This document shows positions 19,426 through 47,403 of a DNA stretch of 64,000 nt, piece by piece. The DNA is from Burkholderiales bacterium (GTDB taxonomy: Bacteria; Pseudomonadota; Gammaproteobacteria; Burkholderiales; JACQAP01): NCBI GenBank assembly GCA_036000845.1, contig DASYUW010000050.1, positions 8,238 through 72,237 on the forward strand, written 5' to 3'. The position numbers were made by a program, and so were the translations under genes. The stretch's first letter is position 1. Every line of letters starts with the position of its first letter. The notes under the pieces were generated by a model. It searched no databases and was not told the DNA's origin. It was given only the letters and a program-made list of their open reading frames with translations.

Positions 19426-19458
19426 TGTGTTGCTCCTCTCGTATGACTGTTGCATGAC

Positions 19459-29614: not shown

Positions 29615-29773
29615 CCTCCAGTCGGCAAGATTACCAATAAGTATCCGTGGATAAAAGCAGGCTACCTTGCATCCCCGATGACATTGCGTACCATACCGGC
29701 TTGTCTGAAAGGCTCGCCCCATCCCGGGAAGTCCATGCCCCGTCGTGATACGCAGACCGTGACAGTGTCCTTT

Positions 29774-30703: not shown

Positions 30704-30741
30704 CTGCAGGAAGCAAACCGCCGACGCGGCGCCGGACCGGT

Positions 30742-31251: not shown

Positions 31252-31263
31252 CTGAAGCGGTGC

Positions 31264-32035: not shown

Positions 32036-32091
32036 CGTGTTTCCTGACAAATCAACAAATAGTGGGTTGGGCGAAAAGAAAAAGCGTCGAA

Positions 32092-33213
32092 TTATAGCCT
32101 TTCCGCACAAAATTTAGCCAGATTCCCAGCCAGATCGCCGGGTCCGGCGAGTCGTTGTTCCCAGGCCTGCGCCAATTCCCGATATTCCGGCCCGCTGCAG
32201 GCCGTCCAGGCTGCCGCCAGCCCATCGACCGCGGCAAAACCGTTCCACACCGCCCACAGTTTGGCCAGATTTGCGCTGGTGCCGGGCCCGGCATGCTCGA
32301 GATAGCGTGCCAGGAAGGCCTCGACCTTCAACCGGTGCGCATCGCCGGCCTGCGGATAGGCCTGCCAGACCAACGGTCGGGCCGCCAACTGCGCACGTAC
32401 GAAGGAATCCTCGCCGCGCACGAAATTCCAGTCGCAGGACCACAGTACGCGGTCGTAGTCGTATTGCGAAAGAAAGGGGAGCATTTGCGCAATGAGCGTG
32501 CCGACCCGCCCGCCTCCCGCCAGGCCGCGTGCCGCGAGCACATCCGCGGCCGCGGTGCCGGCAAACGCAAGCGCGCGCACCGGGCGCCCGCCGGTAGCCC
32601 AGACGTCCAGGAGCGCAGCGACCGGCGCCTCGGGATAGCAGAACAGCGAGACCAGCTGCTCGCCGTGGGCCCGCGGCAGCACGCCGAGCGACGCCAGAAA
32701 CTGCGCCACGCCGCCCGCGTCGGACTGGAATGCCAGCCGCCGCGCGGCCAATCCCTTTTCGACCAGCACGCCGCCGGTACCGGGGACAAAGCCAGGGAAG
32801 AAGAAGTACTTCGTCAGAGGCAGCCGCTGATGCGGCGACGGCAGGCCATGGCAGCCGCCGACCCAGGGTTCGGCGCTCAGATATTCGAGATTGATCCACA
32901 CCGGCGACCGTGCACGCCCGGCCATGGCCTCGACAAACGAAGCCGGCAATTCGCAGCCGAAAGTCTCCACCACCATATCGGCAGGCTCCACCGCCGGAAA
33001 CGGCGTGATCCAGCGCCGCACCTCGACGCCGTCGAGCGACTGCGCACCGCTTCCGGGATCGAGCGCCGGCGCCAGCCGCCCGAAGGTCGCCAGATCATCG
33101 ACCCAAAGCCGCACCGCGGCGCCGTGTTCGGCGGCAAGCTGGCGCGCCAGCCGCCAGCTAACACCGATGTCGCCGAAATTGTCGACGACGTTGCAGAAGA
33201 GATCCCAGCGCAT
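32092..33213 (-). CDS. earP: EF-P arginine-32 rhamnosyltransferase EarP
   Basis: [31 protein letters not shown] is the hallmark EarP N-terminus. The gene is adjacent to the Arg-type efp. The track start 33219 is a TTG; I prefer ATG 33213. Confidence 0.85.
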
Positions 33214-33217
33214 AGGC

Positions 33218-33305
33218 AAGGATGAAGGATGAGGGATGAAGGATGAAGGAAAGTCAAAAGCCTTTGAACTTACTTCATCCTTCTGCCTTCCGCCTTCATA
33301 CTTGC
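33218..33305. repeat. Heptamer-array hairpin, AAGGATG family (copy 1)
   Basis: Left arm: AAGGATG AAGGATG AGGGATG AAGGATG AAGGAAA. Right arm: TACTTCA TCCTTCT GCCTTCC GCCTTCA TACTTGC. The arms are largely complementary. The loop-proximal ttgaacttacttcatcc is shared with 60793-60809. Confidence 0.8.
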
Positions 33306-33307
33306 TT

Positions 33308-34045
33308 TCAGGCCATCCCCCCGTTGATCGAGATGACCTGGCCGGAGATGTAGCCGGCTTCGTCGGACGCCAGAAATGCGGCCAGCGCCGCGACTTCCTC
33401 GGGGGTGCCGGCGCGTTTCATCGGCACCATCGCATCGATCGTTTCTTTGGGGAAAACCTGCGCGGTCATCGGCGTGGCGATGATTCCCGGCGCAATCGCG
33501 TTTACTGTGACGCCGCGCGAGGCCAGTTCAAGCGCCAGCGACTTGGTGGCGCCGTGCAGGCCGGCCTTTGCCGCCGCGTAGTTGACCTGGCCGCGGTTGC
33601 CCATCACGCCGGTCAGCGAGGAGATGTTGATGATGCGGCCCCAGCGGGTTCCCATCATCGGTAGCAGCAATGGCTGGGTGACGTTGTAGAAGCCGTTGAG
33701 CGACACGTCGATTACGCGATCCCACTGCTCGCCGCGCATTCCGGCGAGTGGCGCGTCGTCGTGCACGCCGGCGTTGTTGACGAGCACCTGGATCGGCGCC
33801 TCGTCGATAAGCGCGCCGAGCGCTCTGGCGGCGTCGCCGCGGTCGGTTACGTCGAAAGCGATTGCCTGCGCCTTCGCCCCGCCTGCGCGCAATTGCGTGG
33901 CGAGCTCCTCAGCGGCCCCAAGCCGGTTGTTGGCGTGCACGATCACCTCCAAGCCCCGGGCGGCGAGCATGCGGCAGATCGCCACGCCGATTGCACCGCT
34001 ACCGCCGGTCACCAATGCGCGTTTCGCCCTCGTTGAATCAATCAT
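33308..34045 (-). CDS. fabG: 3-oxoacyl-ACP reductase (FabG/ApeQ-like SDR)
   Basis: 245 aa. TGGSGAIG cofactor motif, NNAG, and the catalytic YAAAKAG. Confidence 0.9.
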   Translation of the reverse strand: MIDSTRAKRALVTGGSGAIGVAICRMLAARGLEVIVHANNRLGAAEELATQLRAGGAKAQAIAFDVTDRGDAARALGALIDEAPIQVLVNNAGVHDDAPLAGMRGEQWDRVIDVSLNGFYNVTQPLLLPMMGTRWGRIINISSLTGVMGNRGQVNYAAAKAGLHGATKSLALELASRGVTVNAIAPGIIATPMTAQVFPKETIDAMVPMKRAGTPEEVAALAAFLASDEAGYISGQVISINGGMA

Positions 34046-34179
34046 TGCCGAATTCTGCCGGAAATATTCTCTTGGGTCTGCGGTTTACGGCGGGTAATAT
34101 TCGCCACACGACACGAACCCGCCTTACTACCGGAAATGTCGACGACAGCATCGCAAATCTGCGCTCCGGGTATGCCGGC

Positions 34180-35517
34180 GTGAGCGCGCCGGCTGCAGCG
34201 ACGCAATTCGCCGCTTCACACTGCGACGTGTTCGTTCTCGGCGGCGGTCCCGCCGGTTCGACCATCGCCGCCCTGCTTGCCGAACGCGGCTGGAACGTGG
34301 TGATCGCGGAGAAGGAGCACCATCCGCGCTTCCACATCGGCGAATCGTTGCTTCCGATGAACCTGCCGATGCTGGACAGGCTCGGGGTCAGGGAGCAAGT
34401 GGAGCGCGTCGGCTTGATCAAGTACGGTGCCGAGTTCACTTCGGCGCAGCACGGCGCGCCGGTCACCCTCAATTTCTGCAGCGCCTGGGACAAGGCTTTC
34501 CCCCATTCTTACGAGGTGCGCCGCTCCGTCTTCGACCACATCCTGTTCAGCAACAGCATCGCCAGGGGCGCGCACGCTTTCGAGGAGTGCCGGGTGACCG
34601 GCGTGGAGTTTGCGTCCGGCGAAGACGTGCGCGTCCGCGCCGCGCAGAAAGAAGGCGGCGCCCGCGAATGGCGTGCCCGCTTCTTCGTCGACGCCTCCGG
34701 CCGCGACACGTTCCTGGCCAACCGCTTCGGCATCAAGCGGCGCAATTCCCGCCACAACAGTGCGGCGATTTACGGCCATTTCGAGGGGGCGAAGCGCCTG
34801 CCGGGCAAAGAGGAAGGCAACATCAGCATCTTCTGGTTCGAGCACGGCTGGTTCTGGTTTATTCCCCTGCTCGACGGGGCGACCAGCGTCGGCGCGGTGT
34901 GCTGGCCGTATTACATGAAGACCCGCAAGACCGATCCTGCGCGCTTCCTGCTCGACACCATCGCGCTATGCCCTGCACTGGCAGAACGGTTGCGCGATGC
35001 AACGCTCACCGCCGGGGCCACCGCCACCGGCAATTACTCGTATTACTCCGAGCGCATGTACGGCGATCGCCACATCATGCTCGGCGACGCGTTCGCATTC
35101 GTGGACCCGGTGTTCTCTTCCGGTGTAATGCTGGCGATGAACAGCGCCTTCCTCGGCGCCGAGGCGGTGGATGCCAGCCTCCGCGATCCGGCCACGGCCG
35201 ACGCGGCCCTGTGCAGGTTCGACGAAAACGTGCGCGCCGGAGTGAAGGAGTTCTCCTGGTTCATATTCCGCATGACCAATCCGACCATCCGCGACCTGTT
35301 CATGGGACCGAAGAACCTGCTGCGCATGGAAGAAGCGCTGCTGTCGCTTCTTGCCGGGGACCTGTTCCGCGGCACGCCGATCCAGTGGAGCCTGCGCGCC
35401 TTCAAGTGCGTGTATTACCTGAACAATCTCGCTCATCCGTGGCGCAGCTTCAATGCCTGGCGCAGACGCAAGCGGGCGATACGCGACCGGCAGGACGAGT
35501 CGCCGGCACACGCGTGA
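34180..35517 (+). CDS. FAD-dependent halogenase-like oxidoreductase
   Basis: VFVLGGGPAGS (the GxGxxG FAD site) and GWFWFIPL (the WxWxIP motif of flavin-dependent halogenases). The track ORF starts at 33862 but overlaps fabG antisense; I use in-frame GTG 34180. The start is uncertain. Confidence 0.75.
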   Translation: MSAPAAATQFAASHCDVFVLGGGPAGSTIAALLAERGWNVVIAEKEHHPRFHIGESLLPMNLPMLDRLGVREQVERVGLIKYGAEFTSAQHGAPVTLNFCSAWDKAFPHSYEVRRSVFDHILFSNSIARGAHAFEECRVTGVEFASGEDVRVRAAQKEGGAREWRARFFVDASGRDTFLANRFGIKRRNSRHNSAAIYGHFEGAKRLPGKEEGNISIFWFEHGWFWFIPLLDGATSVGAVCWPYYMKTRKTDPARFLLDTIALCPALAERLRDATLTAGATATGNYSYYSERMYGDRHIMLGDAFAFVDPVFSSGVMLAMNSAFLGAEAVDASLRDPATADAALCRFDENVRAGVKEFSWFIFRMTNPTIRDLFMGPKNLLRMEEALLSLLAGDLFRGTPIQWSLRAFKCVYYLNNLAHPWRSFNAWRRRKRAIRDRQDESPAHA

Positions 35518-36389
35518 TGCGGCGGCGAGGGGGCAGGATTCCGCCACTGCGATGGAATGCCCTCCCGTGCGGTGGGCTGGCGCTTGCCATGATAGTTGCA
35601 ACGCCTCTCGCACGCGCAGCCGAACTGCCACTCTGGGAAGCCGGGGCAGGCACAGCGGTCATCGACTTTCCCGACTACCGCGGAGCGGACGAGCGTCGGG
35701 TACTTGCGCTCCCCTTCCCCTACATCGTCTATCGCGGCGAGTTGTTGCAGGCCAACCGCGAGGGGCTGCGCGGGCAGTTCTTTAGGACCGACCGGGTGGA
35801 TCTGCACCTGAGCGTGAACGGCTCGATCCCCGTGGACAGTTCCGACAACGCCGCCCGCCGCGGCATGCCGGACCTGGATCCGACGCTGGAGATCGGGCCG
35901 CGACTCGATCTCAATCTCCTGCGCAAACCCGACCATGGCATCGAAATGACGTTACGCCTTCCGGTGCGTACTGTGATCGCGTCGGACTTCTCGCACTCGA
36001 AAAACATCGGCTGGATATTCCAGCCACAACTCAATGTGGACTTTCGCGGTATCTGGCCGGGTGAAGGCTGGAACCTCGGCCTGGCGGCGGGGCCGCTATA
36101 CGGCGACAGGCGTTATCATAATTATTTCTACGGCGTCGCGCCGGCTTTCGACACGCCGCAGCGTCCCGCGTTCAACGCCGAAGGCGGCTACGCCGGCAGC
36201 CAGATTCTCGGCGCCGCCAGCAAGCGCTTTCCCTCCTTCTGGGTGGGCGGTTTCGTGCGGCTGGATACGCTCGCGGGTGCAACCTTCGAAGCGAGTCCTC
36301 TGATCCGGAAAAATGACTCGTTTGCGGCAGGCTTTGCGATCGCGTGGATACTCGGAAGGTCGGATAGGATAGTCGAGGCGGAAGATTAA
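35517..36389 (+). CDS. MipA/OmpV-family outer-membrane protein
   Basis: ATGA-type overlap (TGATG) with the preceding stop. The signal peptide ...ATPLARA is followed by DFPDYRGADERRVLALPFPYIVYRG, typical of the MipA family. Confidence 0.75.
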   Translation: MRRRGGRIPPLRWNALPCGGLALAMIVATPLARAAELPLWEAGAGTAVIDFPDYRGADERRVLALPFPYIVYRGELLQANREGLRGQFFRTDRVDLHLSVNGSIPVDSSDNAARRGMPDLDPTLEIGPRLDLNLLRKPDHGIEMTLRLPVRTVIASDFSHSKNIGWIFQPQLNVDFRGIWPGEGWNLGLAAGPLYGDRRYHNYFYGVAPAFDTPQRPAFNAEGGYAGSQILGAASKRFPSFWVGGFVRLDTLAGATFEASPLIRKNDSFAAGFAIAWILGRSDRIVEAED

Positions 36390-37316
36390 ATGCGTTTGCA
36401 CCGGACAACGAATGAGCCTTCATGGAGGCATCGGCGGCAGCCGGCCTCGGCAGGGCACGACATGACCATGCCGCAAGGATCGCCGGACCGCGGCCTTGAG
36501 CGGCCGCCGCTGTGGTTCCCGGCCCGCTCGGCGCGCCTAGCTTACGAATACTTCGTTTTTTGCTTCGGATACCTATACTTCGGCGCCGGGTGTGCCCTGG
36601 TTTCCCTGGTCAGCATGGTGTTGCACCCGCTCCTTCCTGCCCGCTTCGGCGTGCCGCTGGGCCGATGGATGACGGGCGTGCATTTTCGCGGCTTCCTGGC
36701 ACTGCTCAGGGCGAGCGGGCTGGTGCGTATCGACCTCGCCGCGCTCGACCGGCTCTGTGGCGAGCACTCGATCATCATCGCGCCCAACCACCCCTGCCTG
36801 CTCGACGCCGTTTTCGTGCTCTCGCGGCTTCCGCAGGCAGCCTGCATCATGAAAGCGGCGATCTGGGACAACCTGTTCCTCGGCGGCGGCGCGCGTCTGT
36901 CTGGCCACATCCGCAACGACGCGCCGATCAACCTGGTGCGGCTGTCCACCCGGGAACTGCGCGCGGGAAACCAGTTGCTGGTGTTCCCGGAAGGCACGCG
37001 TACGCGCGCGGCGCCGGTCAATGCCTTCAAAGGCGGGTTTGCATTGATGGCGAAGAAATCCGGCGCTGCGGTGCAGACGATATTCATCGAAACCAACAGC
37101 GCGTTTCTGTGCAAGGGCTGGCCGCTGCTGAAAAAACCGGACTTCCCGCTGTTCTATCGAGCGCGCCTGGGCATGCGCTTTAGTGGCGAAAGCGACGTGA
37201 AGGCGTTCGTGTTGAAACTGGAAAACTATTATCGCCGGGCACTCTCCACGCCGATCCCGGTTGAGCCAACGACGGCTCGCGAATCGCGCCGGGCCGCCAC
37301 GTCGAGGTCTCTATAG
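36390..37316 (+). CDS. Lysophospholipid (PlsC-type) acyltransferase
   Basis: IIAPNHPCLLD (the HX4D motif) and VFPEGTRT. An alternative start is ATG 36453. Confidence 0.8.
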   Translation: MRLHRTTNEPSWRHRRQPASAGHDMTMPQGSPDRGLERPPLWFPARSARLAYEYFVFCFGYLYFGAGCALVSLVSMVLHPLLPARFGVPLGRWMTGVHFRGFLALLRASGLVRIDLAALDRLCGEHSIIIAPNHPCLLDAVFVLSRLPQAACIMKAAIWDNLFLGGGARLSGHIRNDAPINLVRLSTRELRAGNQLLVFPEGTRTRAAPVNAFKGGFALMAKKSGAAVQTIFIETNSAFLCKGWPLLKKPDFPLFYRARLGMRFSGESDVKAFVLKLENYYRRALSTPIPVEPTTARESRRAATSRSL

Positions 37317-37396
37317 GAGGCATTGCGGTCTAGAATGGCGGTTGTGCAACCCCGGCATGACGCCGCCAGATAACTCCAACAAAAAAGCAGTCCGCC

Positions 37397-38188
37397 ATGC
37401 CTGACCGCTCCAAGACACATCTAGTTCTGATCCCCAGTTACGACACCGGTGACAAGGTCCTGGAAACAGTCCGCAAAACGCAGCGTCTCTGGGAGCCGGT
37501 GTGGGTGGTGGTGGATGGGAGCACCGACGGCACTGCGGAGCGACTGCAGGCCCTCGCCCGCGCCGACGCCGGACTGCGGGTGTTCGTGCTGCCCCGCAAC
37601 CAGGGCAAGGGTGCCGCAGTACTGCACGGCCTGCGCGCGGCGGTCGCGCAAGGCTACACCCACATACTGACCTTGGACGCCGACGGCCAGCACCCGGCCG
37701 AGCGCATCCCGGCATTCATGCAAATGTCGGCGCTGCAGCCCGAGGCGCTGGTGCTGGGCAAGCCGATGTTCGACGCCACAGCCCCCAGGCTGCGGGTGAT
37801 GGGCCGGCGCATTTCCAACTGGTGGGCAAATCTCGAGACGCTTTGGGCGGGTATCGGCGACTCGCTGTTCGGCATGCGCGTCTACCCGGCTGCGGCGCTG
37901 CTGCAGGTGATGGAGTCGCAGCGCTGGATGCGGCGTTTCGACTTCGACGTCGAAGCCGCGGTGAGGCTGGTATGGGGTGGCGCCCATCCGGTCAACCTGC
38001 CAGCGCCTGTCCGCTATTTCCGCCCCGAGGAAGGCGGCGTGTCACATTTCAACTACCTGCGCGACAACGCGCTGCTGAGCTGGATGCACACCCGGCTGTT
38101 CTTCGGGTTCCTGATAAGGTTGCCGGTATTGATCGCAAAGAAGCTGAGAACAGAGAGGACAGGGGAAAGAGGAAAGACAAAAGCTTAA
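37397..38188 (+). CDS. Glycosyltransferase family 2 (DPM1-like)
   Basis: LVLIPSYDTG...VVVDGSTDGT...LTLDADGQH is the GT-A DxD architecture. The last ~14 codons lie in the heptamer array. Confidence 0.85.
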   Translation: MPDRSKTHLVLIPSYDTGDKVLETVRKTQRLWEPVWVVVDGSTDGTAERLQALARADAGLRVFVLPRNQGKGAAVLHGLRAAVAQGYTHILTLDADGQHPAERIPAFMQMSALQPEALVLGKPMFDATAPRLRVMGRRISNWWANLETLWAGIGDSLFGMRVYPAAALLQVMESQRWMRRFDFDVEAAVRLVWGGAHPVNLPAPVRYFRPEEGGVSHFNYLRDNALLSWMHTRLFFGFLIRLPVLIAKKLRTERTGERGKTKA

Positions 38189-38270
38189 AACCCAAGGAAC
38201 GGGCTCGGCATCGGTCCGTTCTGCTTTTTCTTGCCTCTTTTAACTTTTCTCTTTTGTCTCGCTTCTTCCC
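38146..38270. repeat. Heptamer-array hairpin, purine-rich variant, between convergent genes
   Basis: Left: GAGAACA GAGAGGA CAGGGGA AAGAGGA AAGACAA AAGCTTA. Right: TGCTTTT TCTTGCC TCTTTTA ACTTTTC TCTTTTG TCTCGCT TCTTCCC. Both stop codons (38186-88 and 38240-42) lie inside the element. Confidence 0.75.
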
Positions 38271-40579
38271 GTCAGAATCGCGGCGAACACCAGGCTTAGA
38301 AAGGCACCGATCGCGACCGTGGAGCCGATGGCCGACAGTACCGGGGTGCTGGCGAAACCGATGACGCCGAAGCCGATGACTGTGGAGAGATTGCAGAGCA
38401 ACAGCGAGGTCACGGTACGCTCCGGGATGGCGTTGGCCATGTTGCGGCGCTCGAAGAACAAGGTGTAGTTGGAACCGACACCAATCACCAGCAGCAGCGC
38501 GACCACATGGAAGATGTTGAGCCGGTCGCCACCGGCAATCAGGATCGCGACGGTGACGATGACAGCGGCGGTGAGCGGCGCAAGCACTTCCCAGGAACGC
38601 CGCAATGATCGCAGCGCTGCCGCCAGCAGTAGCACAATCGCGGCCGCACCGAACAGCGCGAACTGCAGCACCCTCGCCAGGTAGCCCTGATACAACGCAT
38701 CGGATTCGCGCTTGAGGTCGAGCAACACCACCCCTTGCGGACCGAAGCGCTCGATTTGCTGTTCCAGCGCGACGGTGTCGGTCACGCCCCGCAGCGGCAG
38801 CATCGCAAACCACTGTGCGCGCCGTTGAACCAGCAGCGCCTCCAGCTTCAACGCCAGCGCTGTGCCCTGCAGGTCCGCACGCACCAGCGCGGGCTGCCTC
38901 TTCGCCGCTTGCGCTTCTTCGACGAACGGCGTAAATACCCCGGCGCGAAACGGCAGACCCTCCGCAGCTTTGGCCAGATCGCGCCGCAGTTTTTCGGCGT
39001 CCGGTATCGCCCTCTGGCGGGCCCGTTGTGCGGCCACGCTCGGAAGATAGTGCGCCGGGGAATCGTAGCCCGCCAGCACTCCAGCGGACTGGAGTCCGGC
39101 GAGTACAACACCCACGCGTTCGGCCGTTTCCAGCGCTGCCTGCTCGGAATCGCCCGTTACCACGACCAGCTGACGCACGTCCGGCGCTCCAAGATCGCTG
39201 CGCAATGCCTCGTCCATGCGTTGATCGGACGCCGATACCGGGCTCAGGCCGGACAGGTCGTCGTTCCACGGTGTTGCACCCTGCAAGGTCAGCCATACGG
39301 CCAGCACGAGAACAATCCCAATCAACGGCACGCGCAATGCGCGGCCGCGCGCGATCAGGCGCAACAGCACCGGCGCCAGCGTGCCCACGGCCCTGACGCT
39401 ATAGCCACGCGGCACCAGTTCGGGCAATACCCAGCGCGTCACCGCCGCCGCCGTCACCAGTCCGGCGATCGAGAACAGCCCGAGCTGCGCCAGCCCTGGG
39501 AATCCGGAGAACAGCATCGCGGCGCAGCCCAACACCGAGGTGAGCACGCCCAGCCGCAACGTCGGCCAAATGCGCTTGAGCGCGGCTTGCGGCGGGCTGC
39601 CCGGCGCCGTGTTGGTGAACAGGTAAATCGCGTAGTCAACCGCCTCGCCGATCAGTGTGGCGCCGAAGCCGAGGGTCACACCGTGCACCGAGCCGAAGCC
39701 CAGGCTAACCGCAGCGATACCGGCCAGCACCCCGCTGGCCACCGGCACCAGTGTCAGCGCGAGCACCCGCACCGAGCGATACGCGATCAGTAGGCCTGCG
39801 GACACCAGGACTGTGGCAATCAGGGAAAAACGCAGCGCATCCTGCTTGATGCCGGCGCGGGACCTGACCGCAAAGACGCCCGGTCCGCTGACTAGCAAGC
39901 GCGCGCTGTCGGCACGCTGTTCGTGCACCGCCTGCTCGAAAGCCGTGCGGATCGCTGCATGCGCCTGCTCCTGCGCGTCCAGGTCGAAACCCGGGGCGCG
40001 GGTCTGAGCCAGCAGCAGCGCGCGGCTACCGTCGCGCGAGAACCAAACGTCGCCGCGCTTGTCCGGCCCGCCTTCCTCGCGCAATTGCTCGAGCAGACGC
40101 AGGAACTCCCCGGTCGGGTCGCGCGGCAATAGCGGCCCAACAAGCATGCTCGCCGGCGAACCGAGCAGGTCGAGCTGGCGCTCCAGCGCCGCGCGCAGGC
40201 CGGTGACGCTGAAGCGTTCCGGCGCCACCGCCCCGCTGAGCAGATAACGATTGCGCAGCAGGAATTCACCGTCGACGCGCAGCCGGTCCTGCGCACCGTT
40301 GGCAACGTGGGCAAAACGCGCATCGTGCTCCAGCCGGGCGGCCAGTCCCCGGCTTACGGCGGCGAGCCGGTCCTGCGGCGCGCCTTCGATTCCGACTAGG
40401 GTCAGCCGCGACACCACGCCGTCGCGCAGTTCGTCCACCAGCATCTGCTGCGCCGGTGTGGGGGAACGCGGTAGAAAGGCCGCGAGATCGGTGCTGAACT
40501 GCGTGCGCGCGATGACGAAGATGCAGGCGGCCACAAGCGCGAGCCACATACCGATGGCCAGCCGTGCCGGAGATGTCAC
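38240..40579 (-). CDS. MMPL/RND-superfamily exporter (ApeM-like)
   Basis: About 780 aa with two 6-TM bundles and two large periplasmic loops. Start assigned to GTG 40579, which forms a GTGA overlap with the upstream stop. The longer N-terminus in the track (40729) is Arg/Pro-rich and implausible. Confidence 0.8.
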   Translation of the reverse strand: MTSPARLAIGMWLALVAACIFVIARTQFSTDLAAFLPRSPTPAQQMLVDELRDGVVSRLTLVGIEGAPQDRLAAVSRGLAARLEHDARFAHVANGAQDRLRVDGEFLLRNRYLLSGAVAPERFSVTGLRAALERQLDLLGSPASMLVGPLLPRDPTGEFLRLLEQLREEGGPDKRGDVWFSRDGSRALLLAQTRAPGFDLDAQEQAHAAIRTAFEQAVHEQRADSARLLVSGPGVFAVRSRAGIKQDALRFSLIATVLVSAGLLIAYRSVRVLALTLVPVASGVLAGIAAVSLGFGSVHGVTLGFGATLIGEAVDYAIYLFTNTAPGSPPQAALKRIWPTLRLGVLTSVLGCAAMLFSGFPGLAQLGLFSIAGLVTAAAVTRWVLPELVPRGYSVRAVGTLAPVLLRLIARGRALRVPLIGIVLVLAVWLTLQGATPWNDDLSGLSPVSASDQRMDEALRSDLGAPDVRQLVVVTGDSEQAALETAERVGVVLAGLQSAGVLAGYDSPAHYLPSVAAQRARQRAIPDAEKLRRDLAKAAEGLPFRAGVFTPFVEEAQAAKRQPALVRADLQGTALALKLEALLVQRRAQWFAMLPLRGVTDTVALEQQIERFGPQGVVLLDLKRESDALYQGYLARVLQFALFGAAAIVLLLAAALRSLRRSWEVLAPLTAAVIVTVAILIAGGDRLNIFHVVALLLVIGVGSNYTLFFERRNMANAIPERTVTSLLLCNLSTVIGFGVIGFASTPVLSAIGSTVAIGAFLSLVFAAILTGRSETKEKS

Positions 40580-41199
40580 CGGTCTTCCCCGTAAACCCTC
40601 ATCACTGACCGATCGCCGTTGGCTTCGTGGACCTCGATCAGATCCACGCGGTCGCGGCTTCCCCCGATCCTGATCAGGCTGATCACCGTACGCATCTCCT
40701 TGTCGCGCGGCACCAGGTACAACCGCCACTGCGCCGGCCCGCCCTCCAGGTCGACACGATAGAAACGCTCGAGCGCCTGGATATCGCCGCTCAAGGTCGA
40801 GCGTATGCTTTCCACGAAGGCACGCAACACCGGGTAATCCTGCAGCCTCAGGCTGCGGCTCTCCCGGCGTGCCGGATTTTCGATGGTGAGCTTGTCGCCG
40901 TCCAGCGTGAGTGTTTCCGGCCTGGGCGAGTGAGTGCGTTTCTCCAGCCGGCCGGGCGCGCTATAGGTCAGCGTTCCACGCAACTCCAGCGGCGCGTTCA
41001 GGACCTTCAGATACTTGCGCTCGACGAAGCGCGCTTTTGAACTCCGGACTTGGCTCAGGTCGCGCATCAGTTTCTCCAAACTCCAGCCTGCGGCCGGTTC
41101 CTGTGCCCATGAACAGGCGCCGCCCAGCAGTCCGGCGATGAAGATCAGCGCGGCCACCGCGGCTTCAGCGCGATGCCGTCGTATCGGCCCAGAAGTCAT
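40576..41199 (-). CDS. LolA-like outer-membrane lipoprotein-carrier-fold protein (ApeL-like)
   Basis: Start MTSGPIRRHRAEAAVAALIFIAGLLGGACSWA (signal peptide). ARFVERKYLKVLNAPLELRGTLTY is typical of the LolA-like proteins of these clusters. Confidence 0.65.
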   Translation of the reverse strand: MTSGPIRRHRAEAAVAALIFIAGLLGGACSWAQEPAAGWSLEKLMRDLSQVRSSKARFVERKYLKVLNAPLELRGTLTYSAPGRLEKRTHSPRPETLTLDGDKLTIENPARRESRSLRLQDYPVLRAFVESIRSTLSGDIQALERFYRVDLEGGPAQWRLYLVPRDKEMRTVISLIRIGGSRDRVDLIEVHEANGDRSVMRVYGEDR

Positions 41200-42067
41200 A
41201 GAAGTTGAACCAGTTGTAGGGTGCCAGCCGACAGTAGTGCTCGATGCGTCTGGCGTAGAGTTCGGTCCACTGGCGCAAGGTCGCATCGCGCGTGGCGCGT
41301 TCCAGCTTCGGTGCGTCCACGAGGCGTTCGAAACACAGGTCGTAGCAGTTGCCGCCGCGGTACAGCCCCACCATCAGCACCACCGGCCGGCCCAGCAGCG
41401 CGGCAATGCGGAACGGCGCCACCGGAAACTGCGCCGGCTCGCCTAGGAACGGCACTTGCACCGTCGCCGAGTTGTCCAACCCGCGATCTCCCAGCATGCC
41501 GACCCAGTCGCCGCGCTCGAAACGCTGGCGCAACTCAAGCATCGATTGTGGCGAACCCAGGCCGATCACCGTCCCTTCCAGTTCCGGATTAATGGCTTTG
41601 GCCAGCGCGTTGACGCTGGGGTTGGCGTGCTCGAACATCGCCAGGCTTACCTGTACCCGGCGGTCGCGGCCAAGCGCGCGCAACACTTCGAAGCTGCCGA
41701 GATGGGCGCCAAGCAGAAGGCAGTTTTCACCGCGCGCCATGGTCTCGAGCAGAATTTCCTCGCCATGGATCCGTACATCGAACTGGTCGAACCGATCGCG
41801 CAGCAGGAACATGCGATCGAGCGCAACGGTCGCGAAATAGTAGTAATGGCGAAACAGGTCGGCGATCCCGGGCCGGCGTCCGAGCACCTTACCCAGATAT
41901 TTCCTCGACGCCGCCTTGGCCTTGACCGAGAAAATCAGAAAGTAGGCGCACACCGGATACAGCAGCGCCCGCGCGACGGGGCGGCCCAGGCCAAGCGCTA
42001 CCCCGACCAGCAGACGGATCGCCGCGGCGTTGGAGCGCTCGCGTTGCTCGAGCCATTGCCGGCTCAA
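41165..42067 (-). CDS. LpxL/HtrB-family lipid acyltransferase-like protein
   Basis: 300 aa. LLGAHLGSFEV is the HX4E motif of the late lipid A acyltransferase family. The TTG start forms a TTGA overlap with the upstream stop. Confidence 0.7.
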   Translation of the reverse strand: MSRQWLEQRERSNAAAIRLLVGVALGLGRPVARALLYPVCAYFLIFSVKAKAASRKYLGKVLGRRPGIADLFRHYYYFATVALDRMFLLRDRFDQFDVRIHGEEILLETMARGENCLLLGAHLGSFEVLRALGRDRRVQVSLAMFEHANPSVNALAKAINPELEGTVIGLGSPQSMLELRQRFERGDWVGMLGDRGLDNSATVQVPFLGEPAQFPVAPFRIAALLGRPVVLMVGLYRGGNCYDLCFERLVDAPKLERATRDATLRQWTELYARRIEHYCRLAPYNWFNFYDFWADTTASR

Positions 42068-43722
42068 GCCGCATCCTCGCGCTGCGAGGCTCCGGATCGC
42101 AGGGTTCCGCTCAGCACGACATCATCCCCGACCCTGCACTCGAACCGGATCGCGCCCGGCCCCTGGAGTTCGAAGCGGATCAGCACCTCTTCGCCGGGAC
42201 GCACCGGACGCAGAAACTTTGCCGAATTCACCGTGCAGCCGGAGTCGGGAAGCTGAAACTGCCCGGCGGCGGCGGCGATGACTTCGTCGAGCAACACTGC
42301 CCCGGGGATGATCGGGTTCCCCGGGAAATGTCCTTGCGCCGCCGGATGGTCCGCGGGAAAGCGCCGGTGGACGATGGCGGCGCGACGCCCGGCTGCCGAC
42401 GTCGATGTCCGCACAAGGCGCGTGAGCGCCTTACGTGGCAGCTTTCCGGTGGCATCGCGCGGCAGCGCATCGACGAAAACCAGCGGCCGCGGCAGGAACA
42501 CCGGATCGATCCTCTGCCGCAGCGCCTGCAGCAGCGCCTCCCGCGACAGCGCCGGCGCTACCACAAACGCGGCGAGCCGGGTGACCCCTTCGCTGCCTTC
42601 GTCCGGCATGAAGAACACGCCGTCCTGCACTCCTTCGATGCCGTTTAGCTGATGGTTGAGATACGCGAGCGAGCTACGTTTTCCGGCGACATTGACCAGG
42701 TCCGCGCTGCGTCCGTGCAAAACGAAAGTCCCCTGGCCGCGCAATTCGATCACGTCGGTGAACGGCACTTCGGCTTCGATGTGACCGCCCTTTACCAGCA
42801 CTTGGTCCCCTTGCCTGCGCAATTGCAGATCCGGCAGGCTGTGCCACTCGGGGCCCTGCACCGTGCGCCGGGAAGCAACCATTCCCGCCTCGGTAAAGCC
42901 GTAGATCTCATGCAGCGGCGCGGCATAGCGCGCCTCGGCCTGCGCCGCCAACTCCGGAGACAGCGGCGCGGTGGCGCAGATGATGAGCTTGAGCGGCGGC
43001 AATTCGATGTCCCCGGCAAGCAGCGTGCGCAGATGCACTGGAGTGGTGACCAGCACGCGATTGCCGGGAATGTCCGCAAGCGCCGCACGCACGTCGGCCG
43101 GATAGAATGGTCGCGCCGCATGCAGCGCCAGCCCGTTGTGCAGCGCCAGCAGAACGGTGGACTCCAGTCCGTACATGTGCTGCGGCGGAACGGTGCCGAC
43201 CAGCGTGACCGCACGATCGCCATCCAGCCCGAAACGCCGTGCCTCGCAGACGGCTCCGCACGCAAGCGCGCCCCAGGTCTTCCGGTGCGGCGTGGGGCGG
43301 CCGGTCGAGCCGGAGGTGAAGGCAATCGCCGCGACCTGGTCCGGCGGGAATGCCGGCACGGTGCTCGAGCCTTTCCGCGCTGTGTCGGATTTCGGATACG
43401 CCACCTGTTCGATGCGATGGTCCTGCCGCGGCGCGTCCGTCAGCACATACAGTTCAGGGTAATCGCACTCGAGCTGGCGCAGCATTTCCGGCGCCTGGTT
43501 CGGCGGCAGCAGGCTGACTTGTCCGCGCGCCAGAGCCGCCGCCAGGCCGACCGCGAAGCGGTAGCGGTCGGCGCAGTAGTTGACCAGAAAGCGCCGCGAC
43601 GGAAGCTGTTCCGCCACGCACTCGATGTCGCCCAGAAAATCCGCCACGGTTGCGGCGTGCGACCCGCGCCGGGCAATCACGTCGTTTGCCTGGCGATGGC
43701 TGATCAGGGGAATCGCCGCCAT
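42064..43722 (-). CDS. AMP-dependent aryl/acyl ligase (ApeH/XanA2-like) fused to a C-terminal FabZ/hot-dog dehydratase-like domain
   Basis: The adenylation domain (FTSGSTGRPTP; YGFTEAG; GKLPRKAL) is followed by ~130 aa with HFPGNPIIPGAVLLDEVI, the hot-dog dehydratase signature. Confidence 0.85.
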   Translation of the reverse strand: MAAIPLISHRQANDVIARRGSHAATVADFLGDIECVAEQLPSRRFLVNYCADRYRFAVGLAAALARGQVSLLPPNQAPEMLRQLECDYPELYVLTDAPRQDHRIEQVAYPKSDTARKGSSTVPAFPPDQVAAIAFTSGSTGRPTPHRKTWGALACGAVCEARRFGLDGDRAVTLVGTVPPQHMYGLESTVLLALHNGLALHAARPFYPADVRAALADIPGNRVLVTTPVHLRTLLAGDIELPPLKLIICATAPLSPELAAQAEARYAAPLHEIYGFTEAGMVASRRTVQGPEWHSLPDLQLRRQGDQVLVKGGHIEAEVPFTDVIELRGQGTFVLHGRSADLVNVAGKRSSLAYLNHQLNGIEGVQDGVFFMPDEGSEGVTRLAAFVVAPALSREALLQALRQRIDPVFLPRPLVFVDALPRDATGKLPRKALTRLVRTSTSAAGRRAAIVHRRFPADHPAAQGHFPGNPIIPGAVLLDEVIAAAAGQFQLPDSGCTVNSAKFLRPVRPGEEVLIRFELQGPGAIRFECRVGDDVVLSGTLRSGASQREDAA

Positions 43723-43759
43723 GGAGATCGCATGCGTGGATCAGTTGCGGGCCAACCCG

Positions 43760-44449
43760 CTAGCGGTTGCGGACCGGATCCTGCGCCGATCCGGCGAATT
43801 CCCGGAACGCCCGGACCACCGTCGGAATGGAGGCATGGGAAAAATCCGGATAACGCAGCAGCCGGTAAGCGTACTCGCCCAGGTACATGGCAGCGACCAG
43901 AGGCAGGTTCAGCACGTTGGCAAACAACGACCAGGTCGCCAGCGGTGCCAGGGCGAACAGCAGCACCGAAGTCAGCGCCATCCCGGCGAAGAACAGGCAC
44001 CACGCCCAGGTGACGCGGCGCGTGTAGCCTTTGATTTCATCCGGCAACGCGCCGTGCACGTAAGTTGCGAGCCGCGTGATCAGCGCCTCGTTTCCAGCCC
44101 GCAGCGTACGGCCGAAATACCACAGCAGAAAAAAGTAGACCGAGACATGCGTGAGTGGGTATACGATGGCCGGGCTGGCACCGGCGGCACGCCACGCCCA
44201 CCAGCCTGCGAAAGCAGCCGCGCCCAGCGCCAGCAAACCAATCCGGCCCCGCCTTGAACGGGAAAGGAACCATACCAGCAATGCGATCAGCGGCGCCGCC
44301 ATGAGCCATTCACCCAGGCCGCTGTCCGGACGCGCCGAAACCGTCAGATGAACCAGCAACGGATAGGCGATCAGCGCCGCCGCCAGCAACACGCCGCGGC
44401 GGCGGCCGGCACGGCCGCGCCGCTCAGCGGGCTCGATGGCGTTGGACAT
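43760..44449 (-). CDS. Polytopic membrane protein of APE-type clusters (ApeG/COG4648-like)
   Basis: 229 aa with 5-6 TM helices. The position between the ACP and the ligase is as in aryl-polyene clusters. Confidence 0.55.
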   Translation of the reverse strand: MSNAIEPAERRGRAGRRRGVLLAAALIAYPLLVHLTVSARPDSGLGEWLMAAPLIALLVWFLSRSRRGRIGLLALGAAAFAGWWAWRAAGASPAIVYPLTHVSVYFFLLWYFGRTLRAGNEALITRLATYVHGALPDEIKGYTRRVTWAWCLFFAGMALTSVLLFALAPLATWSLFANVLNLPLVAAMYLGEYAYRLLRYPDFSHASIPTVVRAFREFAGSAQDPVRNR

Positions 44450-44699
44450 GCTCGTTCAGGCAGCGCAGCGAGTTGAAGGTCTTGACGTTGTCGTTGTCGT
44501 CGGATCGCAGCTGAAAACCGTATTTTTTGGATACCGCCAGGGCGATCTCCAGGATGTCGATCGAATCCAATCCCAGACCCTCGCGGTACAGGGGTGCATT
44601 CGGGTCGATCTCGCCGGCGGCAATTTCCAGGTTCAACGCCGCCACGATCAGCCCGGCAAGTTCGCGTTCCTGAGCGGTCATGGGCTCGACTGTGTCCAT
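44424..44699 (-). CDS. Acyl carrier protein
   Basis: 91 aa. GLGLDSIDILEIALAV contains the phosphopantetheine-attachment Ser (the DSxD/L motif). Confidence 0.85.
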   Translation of the reverse strand: MDTVEPMTAQERELAGLIVAALNLEIAAGEIDPNAPLYREGLGLDSIDILEIALAVSKKYGFQLRSDDNDNVKTFNSLRCLNEHVQRHRAR

Positions 44700-44891
44700 G
44701 TTCTGCGATCTTTTCCTTTGAAATTCAGCCGGTGCATGCGTCGTTTCGGATTATAACCGCTTGACTTGACCCGGGACCCGCGACGCGGCGGCGCACCCGC
44801 ACGTTGACGCACTATCCCGCGGCACGTAACCTCGCCGGCGAACCGCTGCGACGTCGCGGCCGGTCAACGCACATCAACAGGAACCCGCGCA

Positions 44892-46088
44892 GTGCAGCGT
44901 CTTTTCTTCAGCCGCATGGCGATCGCCAGCAGCGCCGGCATAGGACTCGAGGCCAGCCTGGACGCCCTGCGCGAACGGCGCTCGGGACTCGCACCCTGCA
45001 GATTCGAAACCGCGGAACTCGAGACCTGCGTCGGCCAGATACCCGACGAGCGGCTGGCGCCGGTACGCGCCGACCTGGCTGCGTTCGATTGCCGCAACAA
45101 TCGCATCGCCCAGCTTTGCCTCAGGCAGGACGGTTTCGAAAACGCGGTGATCGAGTCTCGTGAGAGGCACGGGGCCGGCCGTATCGGTGTTTTCCTGGGC
45201 ACGAGCACATCGGGGATCCTCTCGACCGAACTCGCTTATCGCCGCCGCGATCCGGCAAGCGGCGCGTTGCCGCCGGACTTTCGTTACGCCGGCACGCAGA
45301 ACAGCTTTTCGCTTGCCGGCTTCGTCCAATCCTACTTCGCCTTGACTGGTCCGGCGGTGGCGGTGTCCACCGCGTGTTCTTCGAGCGCGAAAGTATTTGG
45401 CAATGCGGCGCGCATGATAGCCGCGGGGCTGTGCGACGCCGCCCTGGTCGGCGGCGTGGACAGCCTTTGCCTGACCACGCTTTACGGTTTCGGTTCGCTG
45501 GGCCTGTTGTCTGCGTCGCCCTGCCGCCCTTTCGATGCGGAGCGCGATGGCATCTCGATCGGCGAGGGCGCAGGCTTTGTGCTGCTGGAAAAATCCGATG
45601 CGCATGCCCCGCCGGATGCGGTCAGGCTGCTCGGCATCGGCGAAAGCGGCGATGCCTACCACATGTCCTCTCCCCATCCGGACGGACTGGGCGCACGGCT
45701 GGCGATGGAACGCGCCCTGAAGGATGCGGGCACCACCCCGCAAGCAATCGACTACATCAACCTGCACGGCACCGGCACCCGGAGCAACGACGCCACCGAG
45801 GACAAGGCGGTGTTCGCGCTGTTCGGCGGCGACGCGCCGTGCAGTTCGACCAAAGGCTGGACTGGACATGCTTTGGGCGCCTGCGGCGCGATCGGGGCGA
45901 TCATCTCGGCCTTGGCGATCGAGCGCGGATTCCTTCCAGGCAGCGTGAATACGCGCACGATCGATCCATCGATGAAGGCAAGGTACCTGCTGGAAAACCG
46001 GCCCGCGAGAGCAAACCTTGTCATGAGCAACGCTTTCGGTTTCGGCGGCACCAACTGCAGCCTGGTGCTGGGACGGGCGGGCGGATGA
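44892..46088 (+). CDS. Beta-ketoacyl-ACP synthase (KS; FabB/F-like, ApeO/R-like)
   Basis: 398 aa with the active-site triad context VSTACSSS (Cys), DAYHMSSPH (His) and NLHGTGT (His). GTG start. Confidence 0.9.
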   Translation: MQRLFFSRMAIASSAGIGLEASLDALRERRSGLAPCRFETAELETCVGQIPDERLAPVRADLAAFDCRNNRIAQLCLRQDGFENAVIESRERHGAGRIGVFLGTSTSGILSTELAYRRRDPASGALPPDFRYAGTQNSFSLAGFVQSYFALTGPAVAVSTACSSSAKVFGNAARMIAAGLCDAALVGGVDSLCLTTLYGFGSLGLLSASPCRPFDAERDGISIGEGAGFVLLEKSDAHAPPDAVRLLGIGESGDAYHMSSPHPDGLGARLAMERALKDAGTTPQAIDYINLHGTGTRSNDATEDKAVFALFGGDAPCSSTKGWTGHALGACGAIGAIISALAIERGFLPGSVNTRTIDPSMKARYLLENRPARANLVMSNAFGFGGTNCSLVLGRAGG

Positions 46089-46879
46089 GAGTCTTCGTCG
46101 AGAGCGTCGGCATCCTTGCCCCGGGGCTGGCCGGATGGGCGGCAAGCCGTGCGGTGCTTGCCGGGACGGCGCCCTACCGTGCTTCCGCGCTGCAGCTCCC
46201 CAGTCTGGATGTGCTGCCTGCGGTGGAGCGTCGGCGCACCGGCCTGCCAGTCAAGCTGGCCATTGCGGTGGGACAGGACGCGCTCGTCGGCAGCGCCAGA
46301 TCGGGCGCCGAATTGCCCACGGTGTTCACTTCCTCGGGCGGTGACGGCGAAATCATCCAGGAAATTTGCGTCACCCTCGCGGGGACGGAACGGCAGGTGT
46401 CGCCGACGCGATTCCACAATTCCGTTCACAACGCGCCGTCCGGCTATTGGGGCATCGCCATGCAGTCGCGCGCGCCCTCCACTAGTCTGTGCGCATTCGA
46501 CTGGAGCTTTACGGCGGGGTTGATCGAGGCCGCTACCCAGGCGAGCGTTGCAGCGGACGCGGTCCTGATGATCGCCTACGATCTGCCTTATCCCGAACCG
46601 TTGCGCGGCGTACACCCTGTATCGGCGCCGTTCGGGGCAGCGCTGCTTCTCACCCGCGATCGTGACAGCCGTTCGATCGCCGGACTGGAACTCGTTGTCA
46701 ACCGCGATCGAAGCCGCACTTCCCGCCACGACGATGCCGGACTCGAAAGCCTGCGCCGGGGAAATTCCAGCGCGCGCGGCCTGCCGCTGCTTGCCGCGCT
46801 GGCCAGGCAGCGTCCGGACGACGTGGTGCTGGAATACGTAGCGGGAAACATGATCGACGTCGCGGTGTCGCCGTGCTGA
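46085..46879 (+). CDS. KS-like chain-length-factor partner (no catalytic Cys)
   Basis: ATGA overlap with the KS stop. MRVFVESVGILAPGL...FHNSVHNAPSGYW is typical of the truncated KS partner in APE-type clusters. Confidence 0.7.
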   Translation: MRVFVESVGILAPGLAGWAASRAVLAGTAPYRASALQLPSLDVLPAVERRRTGLPVKLAIAVGQDALVGSARSGAELPTVFTSSGGDGEIIQEICVTLAGTERQVSPTRFHNSVHNAPSGYWGIAMQSRAPSTSLCAFDWSFTAGLIEAATQASVAADAVLMIAYDLPYPEPLRGVHPVSAPFGAALLLTRDRDSRSIAGLELVVNRDRSRTSRHDDAGLESLRRGNSSARGLPLLAALARQRPDDVVLEYVAGNMIDVAVSPC

Positions 46880-47304
46880 TCGCCGGGCCCCGCATCCGCG
46901 AACTGATTCCGCACGCGGGGGCGATGTGCTTGCTGGATTCGGCGTTAAGCTGGGATGTCGAACGCATCTGTTGTACCGCGAGCAGCCACCGCGACCCCGC
47001 CAATCCGCTGCGCCGCAACGGCCGCCTCGCCGCCGTCTGCGGGATCGAGTACGCGGCACAGGCGATGGCGCTGCACGGCGCGCTCACCGCGCTGGAAGGA
47101 AGACAGGCCCCCGCAGGACTGCTCGCCAGCGTGCGCGAGTTGGTCTGCAACGTCGGCTACCTGCATGATGTGGAACGCGACCTGGTGATCGAGGCCGCGC
47201 GCCTGCTCGGCGACGAATCGCGGGTGATCTACCAGTTCCGCGTCACCGACGGCGGCAACGAATTGATCTCCGGTCGCGCCGCGGTCGTGCTCGATGTCGG
47301 TTGA
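46873..47304 (+). CDS. Hot-dog-fold 3-hydroxyacyl-ACP dehydratase (ApeP-like)
   Basis: 143 aa. The LIPHAGAMCLLD N-terminal motif and AAVCGIEYAAQAMALHG are characteristic. GTG start overlaps the upstream stop. Confidence 0.7.
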   Translation: MLIAGPRIRELIPHAGAMCLLDSALSWDVERICCTASSHRDPANPLRRNGRLAAVCGIEYAAQAMALHGALTALEGRQAPAGLLASVRELVCNVGYLHDVERDLVIEAARLLGDESRVIYQFRVTDGGNELISGRAAVVLDVG

Positions 47305-47371: not shown

Positions 47372-47403
47372 AAAACGCCCGCTTTCGCGGGCGTATTGAT
47401 TTC
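47372..47403. terminator. Bidirectional intrinsic terminator (best for htpX on the minus strand)
   Basis: ACGCCCGC-TTTC-GCGGGCGT stem-loop. On the minus strand it is followed by TTTTCTTTTCCC. Confidence 0.7.

Follow-up and report, generated by a model that had tools for sequence, protein, structure and literature searches.

Aryl polyene (APE) clusters are among the most widespread biosynthetic gene clusters of bacteria, and encode pigments that shield cells from light and oxidative stress. Of the systems studied by experiment, the closest to the one described here is that of Azoarcus BH72, which comprises arcA (halogenase), arcB (XanB2), arcC (MipA), arcD (acyltransferase) and arcE (glycosyltransferase), together with the gene blocks arcV–arcP and arcK–arcH (Schoner et al. 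2014, PMC3949708). Knockouts of arcK and arcT are colourless, and ArcT adenylates both 3-HBA (3-hydroxybenzoic acid) and 4-HBA (4-hydroxybenzoic acid) in vitro (PMC3949708). Here, we describe a 14-gene cluster at positions 33308–47304 of a 64,000-nucleotide stretch of contig DASYUW010000050.1 from a Burkholderiales bacterium; the whole stretch is termed the window. The cluster is an ordinary, intact copy of a widespread pigment cluster family, in a trimmed and compact variant that holds nothing surprising to the specialist. It very likely encodes a functional type II polyketide synthase (PKS)/fatty acid synthase (FAS)-like pathway of the xanthomonadin/arcuflavin branch of the APE family, and its product is probably a halogenated, unmethylated aryl-polyene lipid.

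The cluster is collinear with the arc clusters of Azoarcus BH72 (arcA–arcV), Dechloromonas aromatica RCB (Daro_4173–4199) and Variovorax paradoxus S110, and shares its modules with the arc-like cluster of Sideroxydans lithotrophicus ES-1 (PMC3949708). Module 1 reads halogenase–(XanB2)–MipA–PlsC-type acyltransferase–family 2 glycosyltransferase (GT2) and is equivalent to arcA–(arcB)–arcC–arcD–arcE and Daro_4197–4193. Module 2 reads acyl carrier protein (ACP)–membrane protein–AMP ligase–dehydratase (DH)–LpxL-like acyltransferase–LolA–exporter, in the order arcV–arcU–arcT–arcS, while module 3 consists of a ketosynthase (KS), a truncated KS and a DH, plus a ketoreductase (KR). The arc clusters and the window alike have a single ACP and a single pair of KS and chain-length factor (CLF), and the Variovorax ligase is apparently fused to a DH, as is that of the window. 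The modules of the window are united in a single locus of 14 kb, those of Azoarcus being divided between two unlinked loci; compared with the arc clusters, the window is also without XanB2, a methyltransferase, a polysaccharide deacetylase, an adjacent two-component regulator and the dialkylresorcinol (DAR) genes. The same 14 gene types make up an uncharacterised cluster on plasmid p1 of a cultured insect symbiont, Burkholderia (Caballeronia) sp. RPE67 (BRPE67_DCDS06160–06310). Like the window, RPE67 has a ligase–DH fusion, with a ligase 49% identical to that of the window, and a halogenase–MipA junction without XanB2; it keeps a deacetylase and a methyltransferase between exporter and KS, and its KR and ACP adjoin the halogenase arm.

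The pigment clusters of Xanthomonas campestris (pig/xan) and Lysobacter enzymogenes OH11 (ORF16/ORF17) follow the same type II PKS logic. Shared with the window are an aryl-acid:ACP ligase, a dedicated ACP, a KS with a CSSS motif alongside a half-size CLF-like protein, two FabA/FabZ-like DHs, a FabG-type KR, a LolA-like protein, an exporter, acyltransferases, a glycosyltransferase and, in Xanthomonas, a halogenase. Members of pig/xan include XanA2, XanB2, XanC, XanH/FabG3 and the halogenase XCC4001; the KR FabG3/XanH of X. campestris is needed for pigment (PMC6859482), and Lysobacter ORF16 and ORF17 are the CLF-like and KS counterparts (PMC3691225). The gene order in both genera is unlike that of the window, and between the Xanthomonas and arc-type halogenases identity is only ~26% (Table S4, PMC3949708). 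Xanthomonadins are O-methylated, whereas the window has no methyltransferase; XanB2 supplies 3-HBA in Xanthomonas and Lysobacter, whereas the window has no XanB2.

The ape cluster of Escherichia coli CFT073 and Xenorhabdus doucetiae (ApeA–R) has counterparts in the window of ApeO, ApeC, ApeI/ApeP, ApeE, ApeH, ApeL and ApeM, and the two are collinear in the order ACP–membrane protein–ligase–DH–acyltransferase–LolA–MMPL. Like the window, it contains no chorismatase, and its starter is a 4-hydroxyphenyl unit (Grammbitter et al., bioRxiv 10.1101/2020.12.19.423268). Absent from the window are the second KS (ApeR), second ACP (ApeF), thioesterase (ApeK), DUF3261 LolB-like protein (ApeN) and methyltransferase (ApeB) of the ape cluster; conversely, the halogenase and MipA barrel of the window have no counterpart in the E. 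coli-type cluster. Since a second KS and ACP are lacking and all 14 open reading frames (ORFs) are otherwise assigned, the window cluster falls outside the E. coli/Xenorhabdus subtype.

The 14 genes are contiguous and intact, and can be divided into four transcription units. Unit 1 is the KR gene alone (33308–34045, minus strand); unit 2 (~34180–38188, plus strand) contains the halogenase, MipA, PlsC-type acyltransferase and GT2 genes. Unit 3 (38240–44699, minus strand) converges on unit 2 and contains the ACP, membrane protein, AMP ligase–DH, LpxL-like, LolA-like and MMPL genes, while unit 4 (44916–47304, plus strand) diverges from unit 3 and contains the KS, CLF-like and ApeP-like DH genes. 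The genes are listed below with the expect values of their family matches.

33308–34045, minus strand: KR, 3-oxoacyl-ACP reductase (equivalent of XanH/FabG3, ArcH and ApeQ); adh_short_C2, 7e-56; alternative start at 34015
~34180–35517, plus strand: flavin-dependent halogenase (ArcA equivalent); Pfam Trp_halogenase, 7e-25; start at 34015, 34138 or 34180
35589–36389, plus strand: MipA/OmpV-family outer-membrane beta-barrel (ArcC equivalent); PF06629, 1.4e-36, called on contig L081 (see below)
36462–37316, plus strand: PlsC-type (lysophospholipid/glycerol-phosphate) acyltransferase (ArcD equivalent, ApeD-like role); PF01553, 2.5e-12
37397–38188, plus strand: GT2 (ArcE equivalent); PF00535, 8e-19; DAD motif
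38240–40549, minus strand: MMPL/RND-type exporter, HpnN/HAE3-like (equivalent of ArcP and ApeM); PF03176, 4e-10
40576–41157, minus strand: LolA-like periplasmic lipid carrier with signal peptide (equivalent of ArcQ and ApeL); LolA_3, 1.7e-19
41165–42067, minus strand: LpxL/lipid-A-type acyltransferase (ArcR equivalent); Lip_A_acyltrans PF03279, 1.6e-11; motif HLGSFE (HX4E)
42064–43722, minus strand: fusion of AMP ligase and ApeI-like DH (equivalent of ArcT+ArcS, XanA2 and ApeH+ApeI); AMP-binding, 1e-21; FabA, 6e-4
43760–44449, minus strand: multi-pass inner-membrane protein of 229 residues in the ArcU/ApeG position; 'COG4648-like' by position
44424–44699, minus strand: dedicated ACP (equivalent of XanC, ArcV and ApeE); PP-binding, 3.5e-8
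44916–46088, plus strand: KS (equivalent of ArcK, Lysobacter ORF17 and ApeO); N- and C-terminal ketoacyl-synt domains
46085–46879, plus strand: truncated KS-like CLF partner of 264 residues (equivalent of ArcJ, Lysobacter ORF16 and ApeC); PF13723 (Ketoacyl-synt_2), 5.8e-26
46873–47304, plus strand: ApeP-like hot-dog DH subunit of 143 residues (ArcI equivalent); PF22817 ApeP-like, in the precomputed table of L081

Gene models were set by Pfam and NCBIfam matches, together with the gene calls and precomputed Pfam annotation of a near-identical 77-kb JGI contig, Ga0376049_0000244 (L081). Over 20.7 kb this contig differs from the window by one mismatch and a 105-bp indel, and by its coordinates the window would run past the end of the contig, which makes the two sibling assemblies of the same population; the contig is 100% identical over the cluster, and its independent gene calls and Pfam annotation agree with the models given here. 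Scoring by GC3 and by self-trained codon usage was set aside, as real genes and antisense shadow ORFs are not separable in this way at 65% G+C. The region is rich in shadow ORFs: those at 34038–34493 (minus strand) and 36034–36303 (plus strand) are spurious, having no family matches and overlapping real genes, and those at 34216–34845, 34966–35631, 35433–35936 and 45752–47059 (all minus strand) were discarded because they lack family matches and overlap genes that have them. All the gene assignments of the original prediction are reproduced by Pfam, NCBIfam and the L081 gene calls.

The polyene-building enzymes carry the assignment. The best structural match of the KS in the Protein Data Bank (PDB) is ApeO of Xenorhabdus (6QSP_A, 6e-72, 246 bits), followed by chain B of 7F28 (4e-68), both of which score some 50–60 bits above any FabF; the KS scores 524 bits against NF006618 (cutoff 407), and its CSSS, HGTGT and GHALGA motifs, of the Cys-His-His triad type, are intact. 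The CLF-like protein, whose start codon overlaps the KS stop codon (46085–46088), matches 7F28_A (1.6e-12) and ApeC (6QSP_B, 1.9e-7). Dehydration is represented by two proteins. A plain Pfam scan of the 143-residue protein is blank, and its PDB match is chain B of the ApeI:ApeP dehydratase (6QSR, E=0.0025). The fusion protein comprises a ligase (residues ~1–440) with an intact TSGSTG motif and a DH (residues ~445–552, encoded at ~42064–42390) with an intact HFPGNPIIPG motif; its C-terminal ~110 residues belong to PF22818 (ApeI-like), and FabZ structures match residues 453–545. The closest NCBIfam similarity of the ligase is to 4-coumarate ligase, with a score under every NCBIfam equivalog cutoff. 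The ACP scores 128 bits against NF006617 (cutoff 70), has as best PDB match 9LS6_A (deposited as acyl carrier protein; 1.2e-12) and retains the carrier serine in a DSI motif, while the KR scores 355 bits against the FabG model NF004200 (cutoff 273) and has the GxxxGxG and YxxxK motifs. The core set used by Grammbitter et al. for APE membership (KS, ACP, CLF, DH pair, KR and transporter) is thus present in its entirety. The matches to the ApeO, ApeC and ApeI:ApeP structures, and collinearity with the arc clusters, bear out the placement of the locus in the APE superfamily by the original prediction, and the xanthomonadin/arcuflavin subtype is supported by the same comparisons.

The flavoprotein, previously described as halogenase-like, is on the evidence of its family match, structure match and motifs a genuine flavin-dependent halogenase of the CndH/PltA class. 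Its best PDB match is CndH (3E1T, 1.4e-58), with further matches to ChlB4, PltA and CmlS; it contains a GGGPAG motif, the signature WFWFIP and a lysine, K81 (KYGAEF), that aligns to a conserved stretch of CndH, 'IKRGGTF'. The substrates of CndH and PltA are bound to carrier proteins, so that halogenation of the ACP-bound aryl unit, and hence of the product, is plausible by analogy. Among the putative lipid-anchor and export genes, the PlsC-type acyltransferase has the motifs HPCLLD (HX4D) and FPEGTR, the LolA-like protein matches the NCBIfam flexirubin LolA2 family (2.5e-13), and a GT2 protein identical to that of the window is encoded on JGI contigs. MipA had been noted in the original prediction; its presence stands, but it is no oddity, since it is found as arcC, Daro_4195 and Slit_373 and in many of the related loci described below, and is a normal member of the arc subtype. 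The 229-residue protein is indeed a membrane protein, and the label 'COG4648-like' given to it finds its support in the position of the gene, which lies between ACP and ligase in most of those loci, as do arcU and apeG.

In a search of one genome per species, the ligase had more than 587 relatives; the best 80 loci, to which the counts below refer, were compared with all 14 proteins by tblastn. They belong mostly to Betaproteobacteria (Burkholderiales, Ralstonia, Paraburkholderia, Caballeronia, Cupriavidus, Thiobacillus, Aromatoleum and Gallionella), with Steroidobacteraceae also represented, and the same three modules recur in nearly all of them. In most, the ApeP-like gene is kept 3′ of the CLF-like gene. 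The ligase–DH fusion is not rare, being present in 23 of the 80 loci and in RPE67, and apparently in Variovorax S110 too. The closest of these best 80 is L004, an uncultured Alcaligenaceae metagenome-assembled genome (MAG) with 79–94% amino-acid identity, the same layout and the same chromosomal context, in which the cluster lies between EarP/EF-P and HtpX/ABC-F. This context is found in L001 and L004 and, in part, in L002, L005, L006, L009 and L075; its recurrence in related MAGs indicates that the cluster is long resident here. An origin from a mobile element or plasmid was considered and rejected on the same grounds, and because G+C content is near that of the flanks.

The cluster is under purifying selection. 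By the Nei–Gojobori method, the ratio of non-synonymous to synonymous divergence (dN/dS) between the window and L004 is 0.11–0.31 for all cluster genes and 0.15–0.33 for flanking housekeeping genes; this similarity of range, together with intact motifs, points to maintained function. Comparison with a second relative, L075, indicates a mosaic history. Synonymous divergence (dS) from L075 is 0.15–0.24 for the ABC-F, HtpX, MMPL and halogenase genes and 0.41–0.49 for MipA, PlsC and GT2, but rises to 0.83–1.2 in the block that begins with LolA and ends with the CLF-like gene (window 40576–46879; L075 4391–10448). Dehydratase placement differs as well: downstream of MMPL, L002 has a single ORF with ApeI-like and ApeP-like parts, and the DH of L075 and of L009 occupies the same place, whereas the window has one ligase-fused (ApeI-like) and one post-CLF (ApeP-like) DH. 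The jump in dS and the differing placement indicate that the central block was replaced by recombination in either the window or the L075 lineage.

The true peculiarity of the cluster is the absence of XanB2, a methyltransferase and a polysaccharide deacetylase, none of which has a tblastn homologue anywhere in the 64 kb (XanB2 queries were the proteins of L075 and L002). A single XanB2 match at 35406–35522 (E=5e-4) was dismissed, since it merely echoes, out of frame, the 3′ end of the halogenase gene, which is conserved. L075 illustrates what is absent: the genes flanking its junctions are 92–95% identical to those of the window, but between halogenase and MipA it carries XanB2, an FkbO/Hyg5-type chorismatase (PF21168, 3e-31), and between MMPL and GT2 a methyltransferase and an ApeI-like DH. 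In the window, the DNA runs straight across both of these sites (from 35507 to 35625, and from 38113 to 38271). Elsewhere, XanB2 was detected in 15 of the 80 loci and is absent from the complete RPE67 cluster and from Caballeronia halogenase–MipA junctions; it is therefore common but not universal. Direct joining of halogenase to MipA is also seen in the Caballeronia/Burkholderia loci L021, L029, L032 and RPE67. The polysaccharide deacetylase occurs in 54 loci, and a methyltransferase in 29 (L044 type, located after the exporter) plus 3 (L075 type).

The lack of XanB2 and a methyltransferase noted in the original prediction is therefore real across the 64 kb. A thioesterase, a second ACP and a DUF3261-type gene had been listed there as well, and their absence also stands: a paralogue search of the 64 kb returned no second KS or ACP, and every ORF within the 14 kb is otherwise assigned, which leaves no thioesterase or DUF3261 gene there. 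To call them missing is not apt, however, since they are absent too from published arc-type gene tables; they are the defining genes of the E. coli/Xenorhabdus subtype, and a cluster of the present kind would not be expected to have them.

The pathway proposed here starts with the AMP ligase, which would adenylate a hydroxybenzoic acid and load it onto the dedicated ACP, as is known for its homologues ArcT and XanA2. As there is no XanB2, the starter would most likely be 4-HBA from the UbiC/ubiquinone pathway, or else external 3- or 4-HBA. The KS and its ApeC-type CLF-like partner would extend it iteratively with malonyl units, each cycle comprising reduction by the KR and dehydration by the pair of ligase-fused ApeI-like and ApeP-like proteins; with no enoyl reduction, an ACP-bound aryl polyene would result. 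The CndH/PltA-class halogenase would probably chlorinate or brominate the ring on the ACP-bound substrate, and without a methyltransferase the phenol would stay unmethylated. The PlsC-type and LpxL-type acyltransferases and GT2 would most likely then join the polyene by an ester bond to a (lyso)phospholipid that is glycosylated, as seen in Xenorhabdus APE lipids (APELs), whose structure is the basis for the lipid-anchor and export roles given to these genes (bioRxiv 10.1101/2020.12.19.423268). The membrane protein, MMPL pump, LolA-like carrier and MipA barrel would transfer the lipid to the outer membrane, where the pigment would protect from light and reactive oxygen.

Several observations weigh against this pathway. 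The organism is uncultured and known from a metagenome contig. No starter-acid synthase (XanB2) is encoded in the cluster or the 64 kb, and loss of xanB2 in X. campestris abolishes pigment unless 3-HBA is supplied (PMC6859482). The arcuflavin of Azoarcus is described without halogen despite arcA (PMC3949708), and no arc-type cluster in Betaproteobacteria has a reported halogenated product. The 229-residue membrane protein has no Pfam or NCBIfam match, and a sigma-70 promoter scan found no consensus anywhere in the cluster, including the divergent region at 44700–44915. In L004, the KR loses homology after codon 62, and a block of short repeats (L004 16366–16666) replaces its 3′ two-thirds; this could be real decay in that lineage or a fault of MAG assembly.

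If the L004 truncation is decay, it can be read together with the absence of XanB2, methyltransferase and deacetylase from the window, the retention of XanB2 and methyltransferase by the sister L075 at the exact junctions, and the colourless phenotype of X. campestris xanB2 mutants (PMC6859482): the cluster would be an evolutionary remnant, a PKS that has lost its substrate, makes no pigment and is decaying. We consider this improbable, because none of the 14 ORFs is shortened, their catalytic motifs are intact, and dN/dS lies at 0.11–0.31, as in neighbouring housekeeping genes. The clusters of cultured Caballeronia and Burkholderia likewise lack XanB2; the gene could also sit in another part of the genome, compare the split arc loci of Azoarcus. 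4-HBA, moreover, is present in any proteobacterium that makes ubiquinone. The want of an encoded aryl-acid source could instead mean that the ligase loads a non-aromatic acid; the product would then be a polyunsaturated fatty-acyl lipid, conjugated or halogenated, that lacks an aryl head. The ligase score under every equivalog cutoff would allow this, and a conjugated fatty acyl chain of non-aryl type has been proposed as a further product of the Xenorhabdus APE machinery (bioRxiv 10.1101/2020.12.19.423268). Such a product is nonetheless highly improbable: the ligase is 45–69% identical to arc-type ligases (54–55% over the ligase domain for that of Aromatoleum), among which Azoarcus ArcT adenylates 3-HBA and 4-HBA (PMC3949708). 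Its best NCBIfam similarity is to 4-coumarate ligase, and the halogenase class includes phenol- and pyrrole-halogenating enzymes.

Two further alternatives accept an aryl polyene and concern what is attached to it. In Azoarcus BH72, the arc and dar loci are unlinked and together yield a DAR ester, and Dechloromonas, Variovorax and Sideroxydans combine both cluster types (PMC3949708); the polyene of the window could likewise be esterified to a DAR, in the style of arcuflavin or flexirubin, rather than to a glycolipid, with darAB elsewhere in the genome. There is little likelihood of this, given that no DarA or DarB (FabH-like KS III) homologue is found among the window ORFs scanned with Pfam (64 kb) and there is no second KS; DAR genes accompany only 16 of 39 arc-type genomes (Table S7, PMC3949708), and the GT2, PlsC and LpxL genes, which the APEL glycolipid model accounts for, are kept. 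A bolder proposal, which we regard as rather unlikely, is that the cluster makes an APE lipid of a new chemotype, in which an N-acetylated sugar-lipid anchors a polyene that is primed with 4-HBA, chlorinated or brominated, and unmethylated, with the MipA barrel as outer-membrane acceptor replacing the LolB-like DUF3261 protein. If MipA did act as the acceptor, the poorly understood MipA/OmpV family would gain a role in lipid insertion. The halogenated, unmethylated aryl-polyene glycolipid pathway outlined above is preferred.

The cluster is bounded on the left by EarP (32092–33219; TIGR03837, 458 bits) and EF-P, and on the right by a terminator followed by HtpX and an ABC-F ATPase. The boundaries of the original prediction thus hold, and its coordinates bound the cluster exactly. 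G+C content rises only slightly, to 0.64–0.67 from 0.59–0.65 in the flanks. Four non-coding features were recorded.

33218–33297, minus strand: hairpin in the spacer that separates the KR stop codon from the EarP start codon (TRF, RNA fold)
38196–38222, plus strand: terminator-like hairpin at the convergent GT2/MMPL junction; 10-bp stem, then a T-rich tail
44700–44915, no strand assigned: divergent intergenic region between the ACP and KS operons
47375–47394, both strands: bidirectional terminator between the ApeP-like gene and HtpX, at the right border; 8-bp G+C-rich stem

The terminator scan returned 17 sites against 12.4 expected, a marginal excess, and only the two operon-end sites are relied on. 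The divergent region presumably carries the promoters of both the ACP and the KS operon. The 88-bp spacer between EarP and KR (33205–33310 examined) consists of AAGGATG heptads in 4.7 copies, plus their complement (TRF), and folds as a long hairpin (−42.9 kcal/mol, z = −5.5) that is probably a terminator or attenuator of the KR transcript. The contig L081, otherwise identical, has a perfect 105-bp tandem duplication of the spacer (5706–5915), and the short-repeat block within the KR gene of L004 is a different one; the spacer looks like a hypervariable repeat hairpin.

To the left of the cluster, the gene for EF-P and then that for its arginine rhamnosyltransferase EarP directly adjoin the KR gene (31475–33219). 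Before them, at 27589–31290, lie an OmpR-type response regulator, a hybrid histidine kinase (Response_reg, HisKA_3 and HATPase_c domains) and a retropepsin-like aspartyl protease (gag-asp_proteas, 30742–31290). The L081 gene calls split the kinase ORF, with an unannotated 309-residue gene on the opposite strand instead (~29774–30703 of the window). The two-component system at 27.6–30.6 kb was considered as a cluster regulator resembling arcW/arcX and rejected; since the aspartyl-protease gene, EF-P and EarP intervene, no regulatory link is claimed.

Positions 1–27300 are occupied by a large exopolysaccharide (EPS) locus of the exosortase/PEP-CTERM type. It contains genes for a heparinase II/III-like protein, two asparagine synthases, a family 4 glycosyltransferase (GT4), a Wzy_C O-antigen-ligase-like protein and a DUF3485 (EpsI-like) protein. 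The exosortase EpsH (12659–13732) is accompanied by a P-loop ATPase, a Wzz/GNVR chain-length protein, a Poly_export/SLBB protein and a peptidyl-prolyl isomerase, and further members are an Rce1-like CAAX protease, a Bac_transf priming transferase (22471–23904), a beta-barrel porin and a LuxR-type regulator. ORFs of 191, 199, 244 and 537 residues in the locus (18174–20193 and 4653–6266) have no Pfam match; the three small ones among them, which adjoin the Rce1-like protease, could be PEP-CTERM substrates.

This copy documents an arc-type cluster in an uncultured Alcaligenaceae-like lineage and conceptually adds little to what is known of the family. Purifying selection has here retained a compact version of 14 genes that lacks its own starter-acid synthase, a methyltransferase and a deacetylase. 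The cluster could be used for heterologous expression as a minimal template, with which the action of the arc-type halogenase on ACP-bound polyenes and the role of MipA in export may be addressed.

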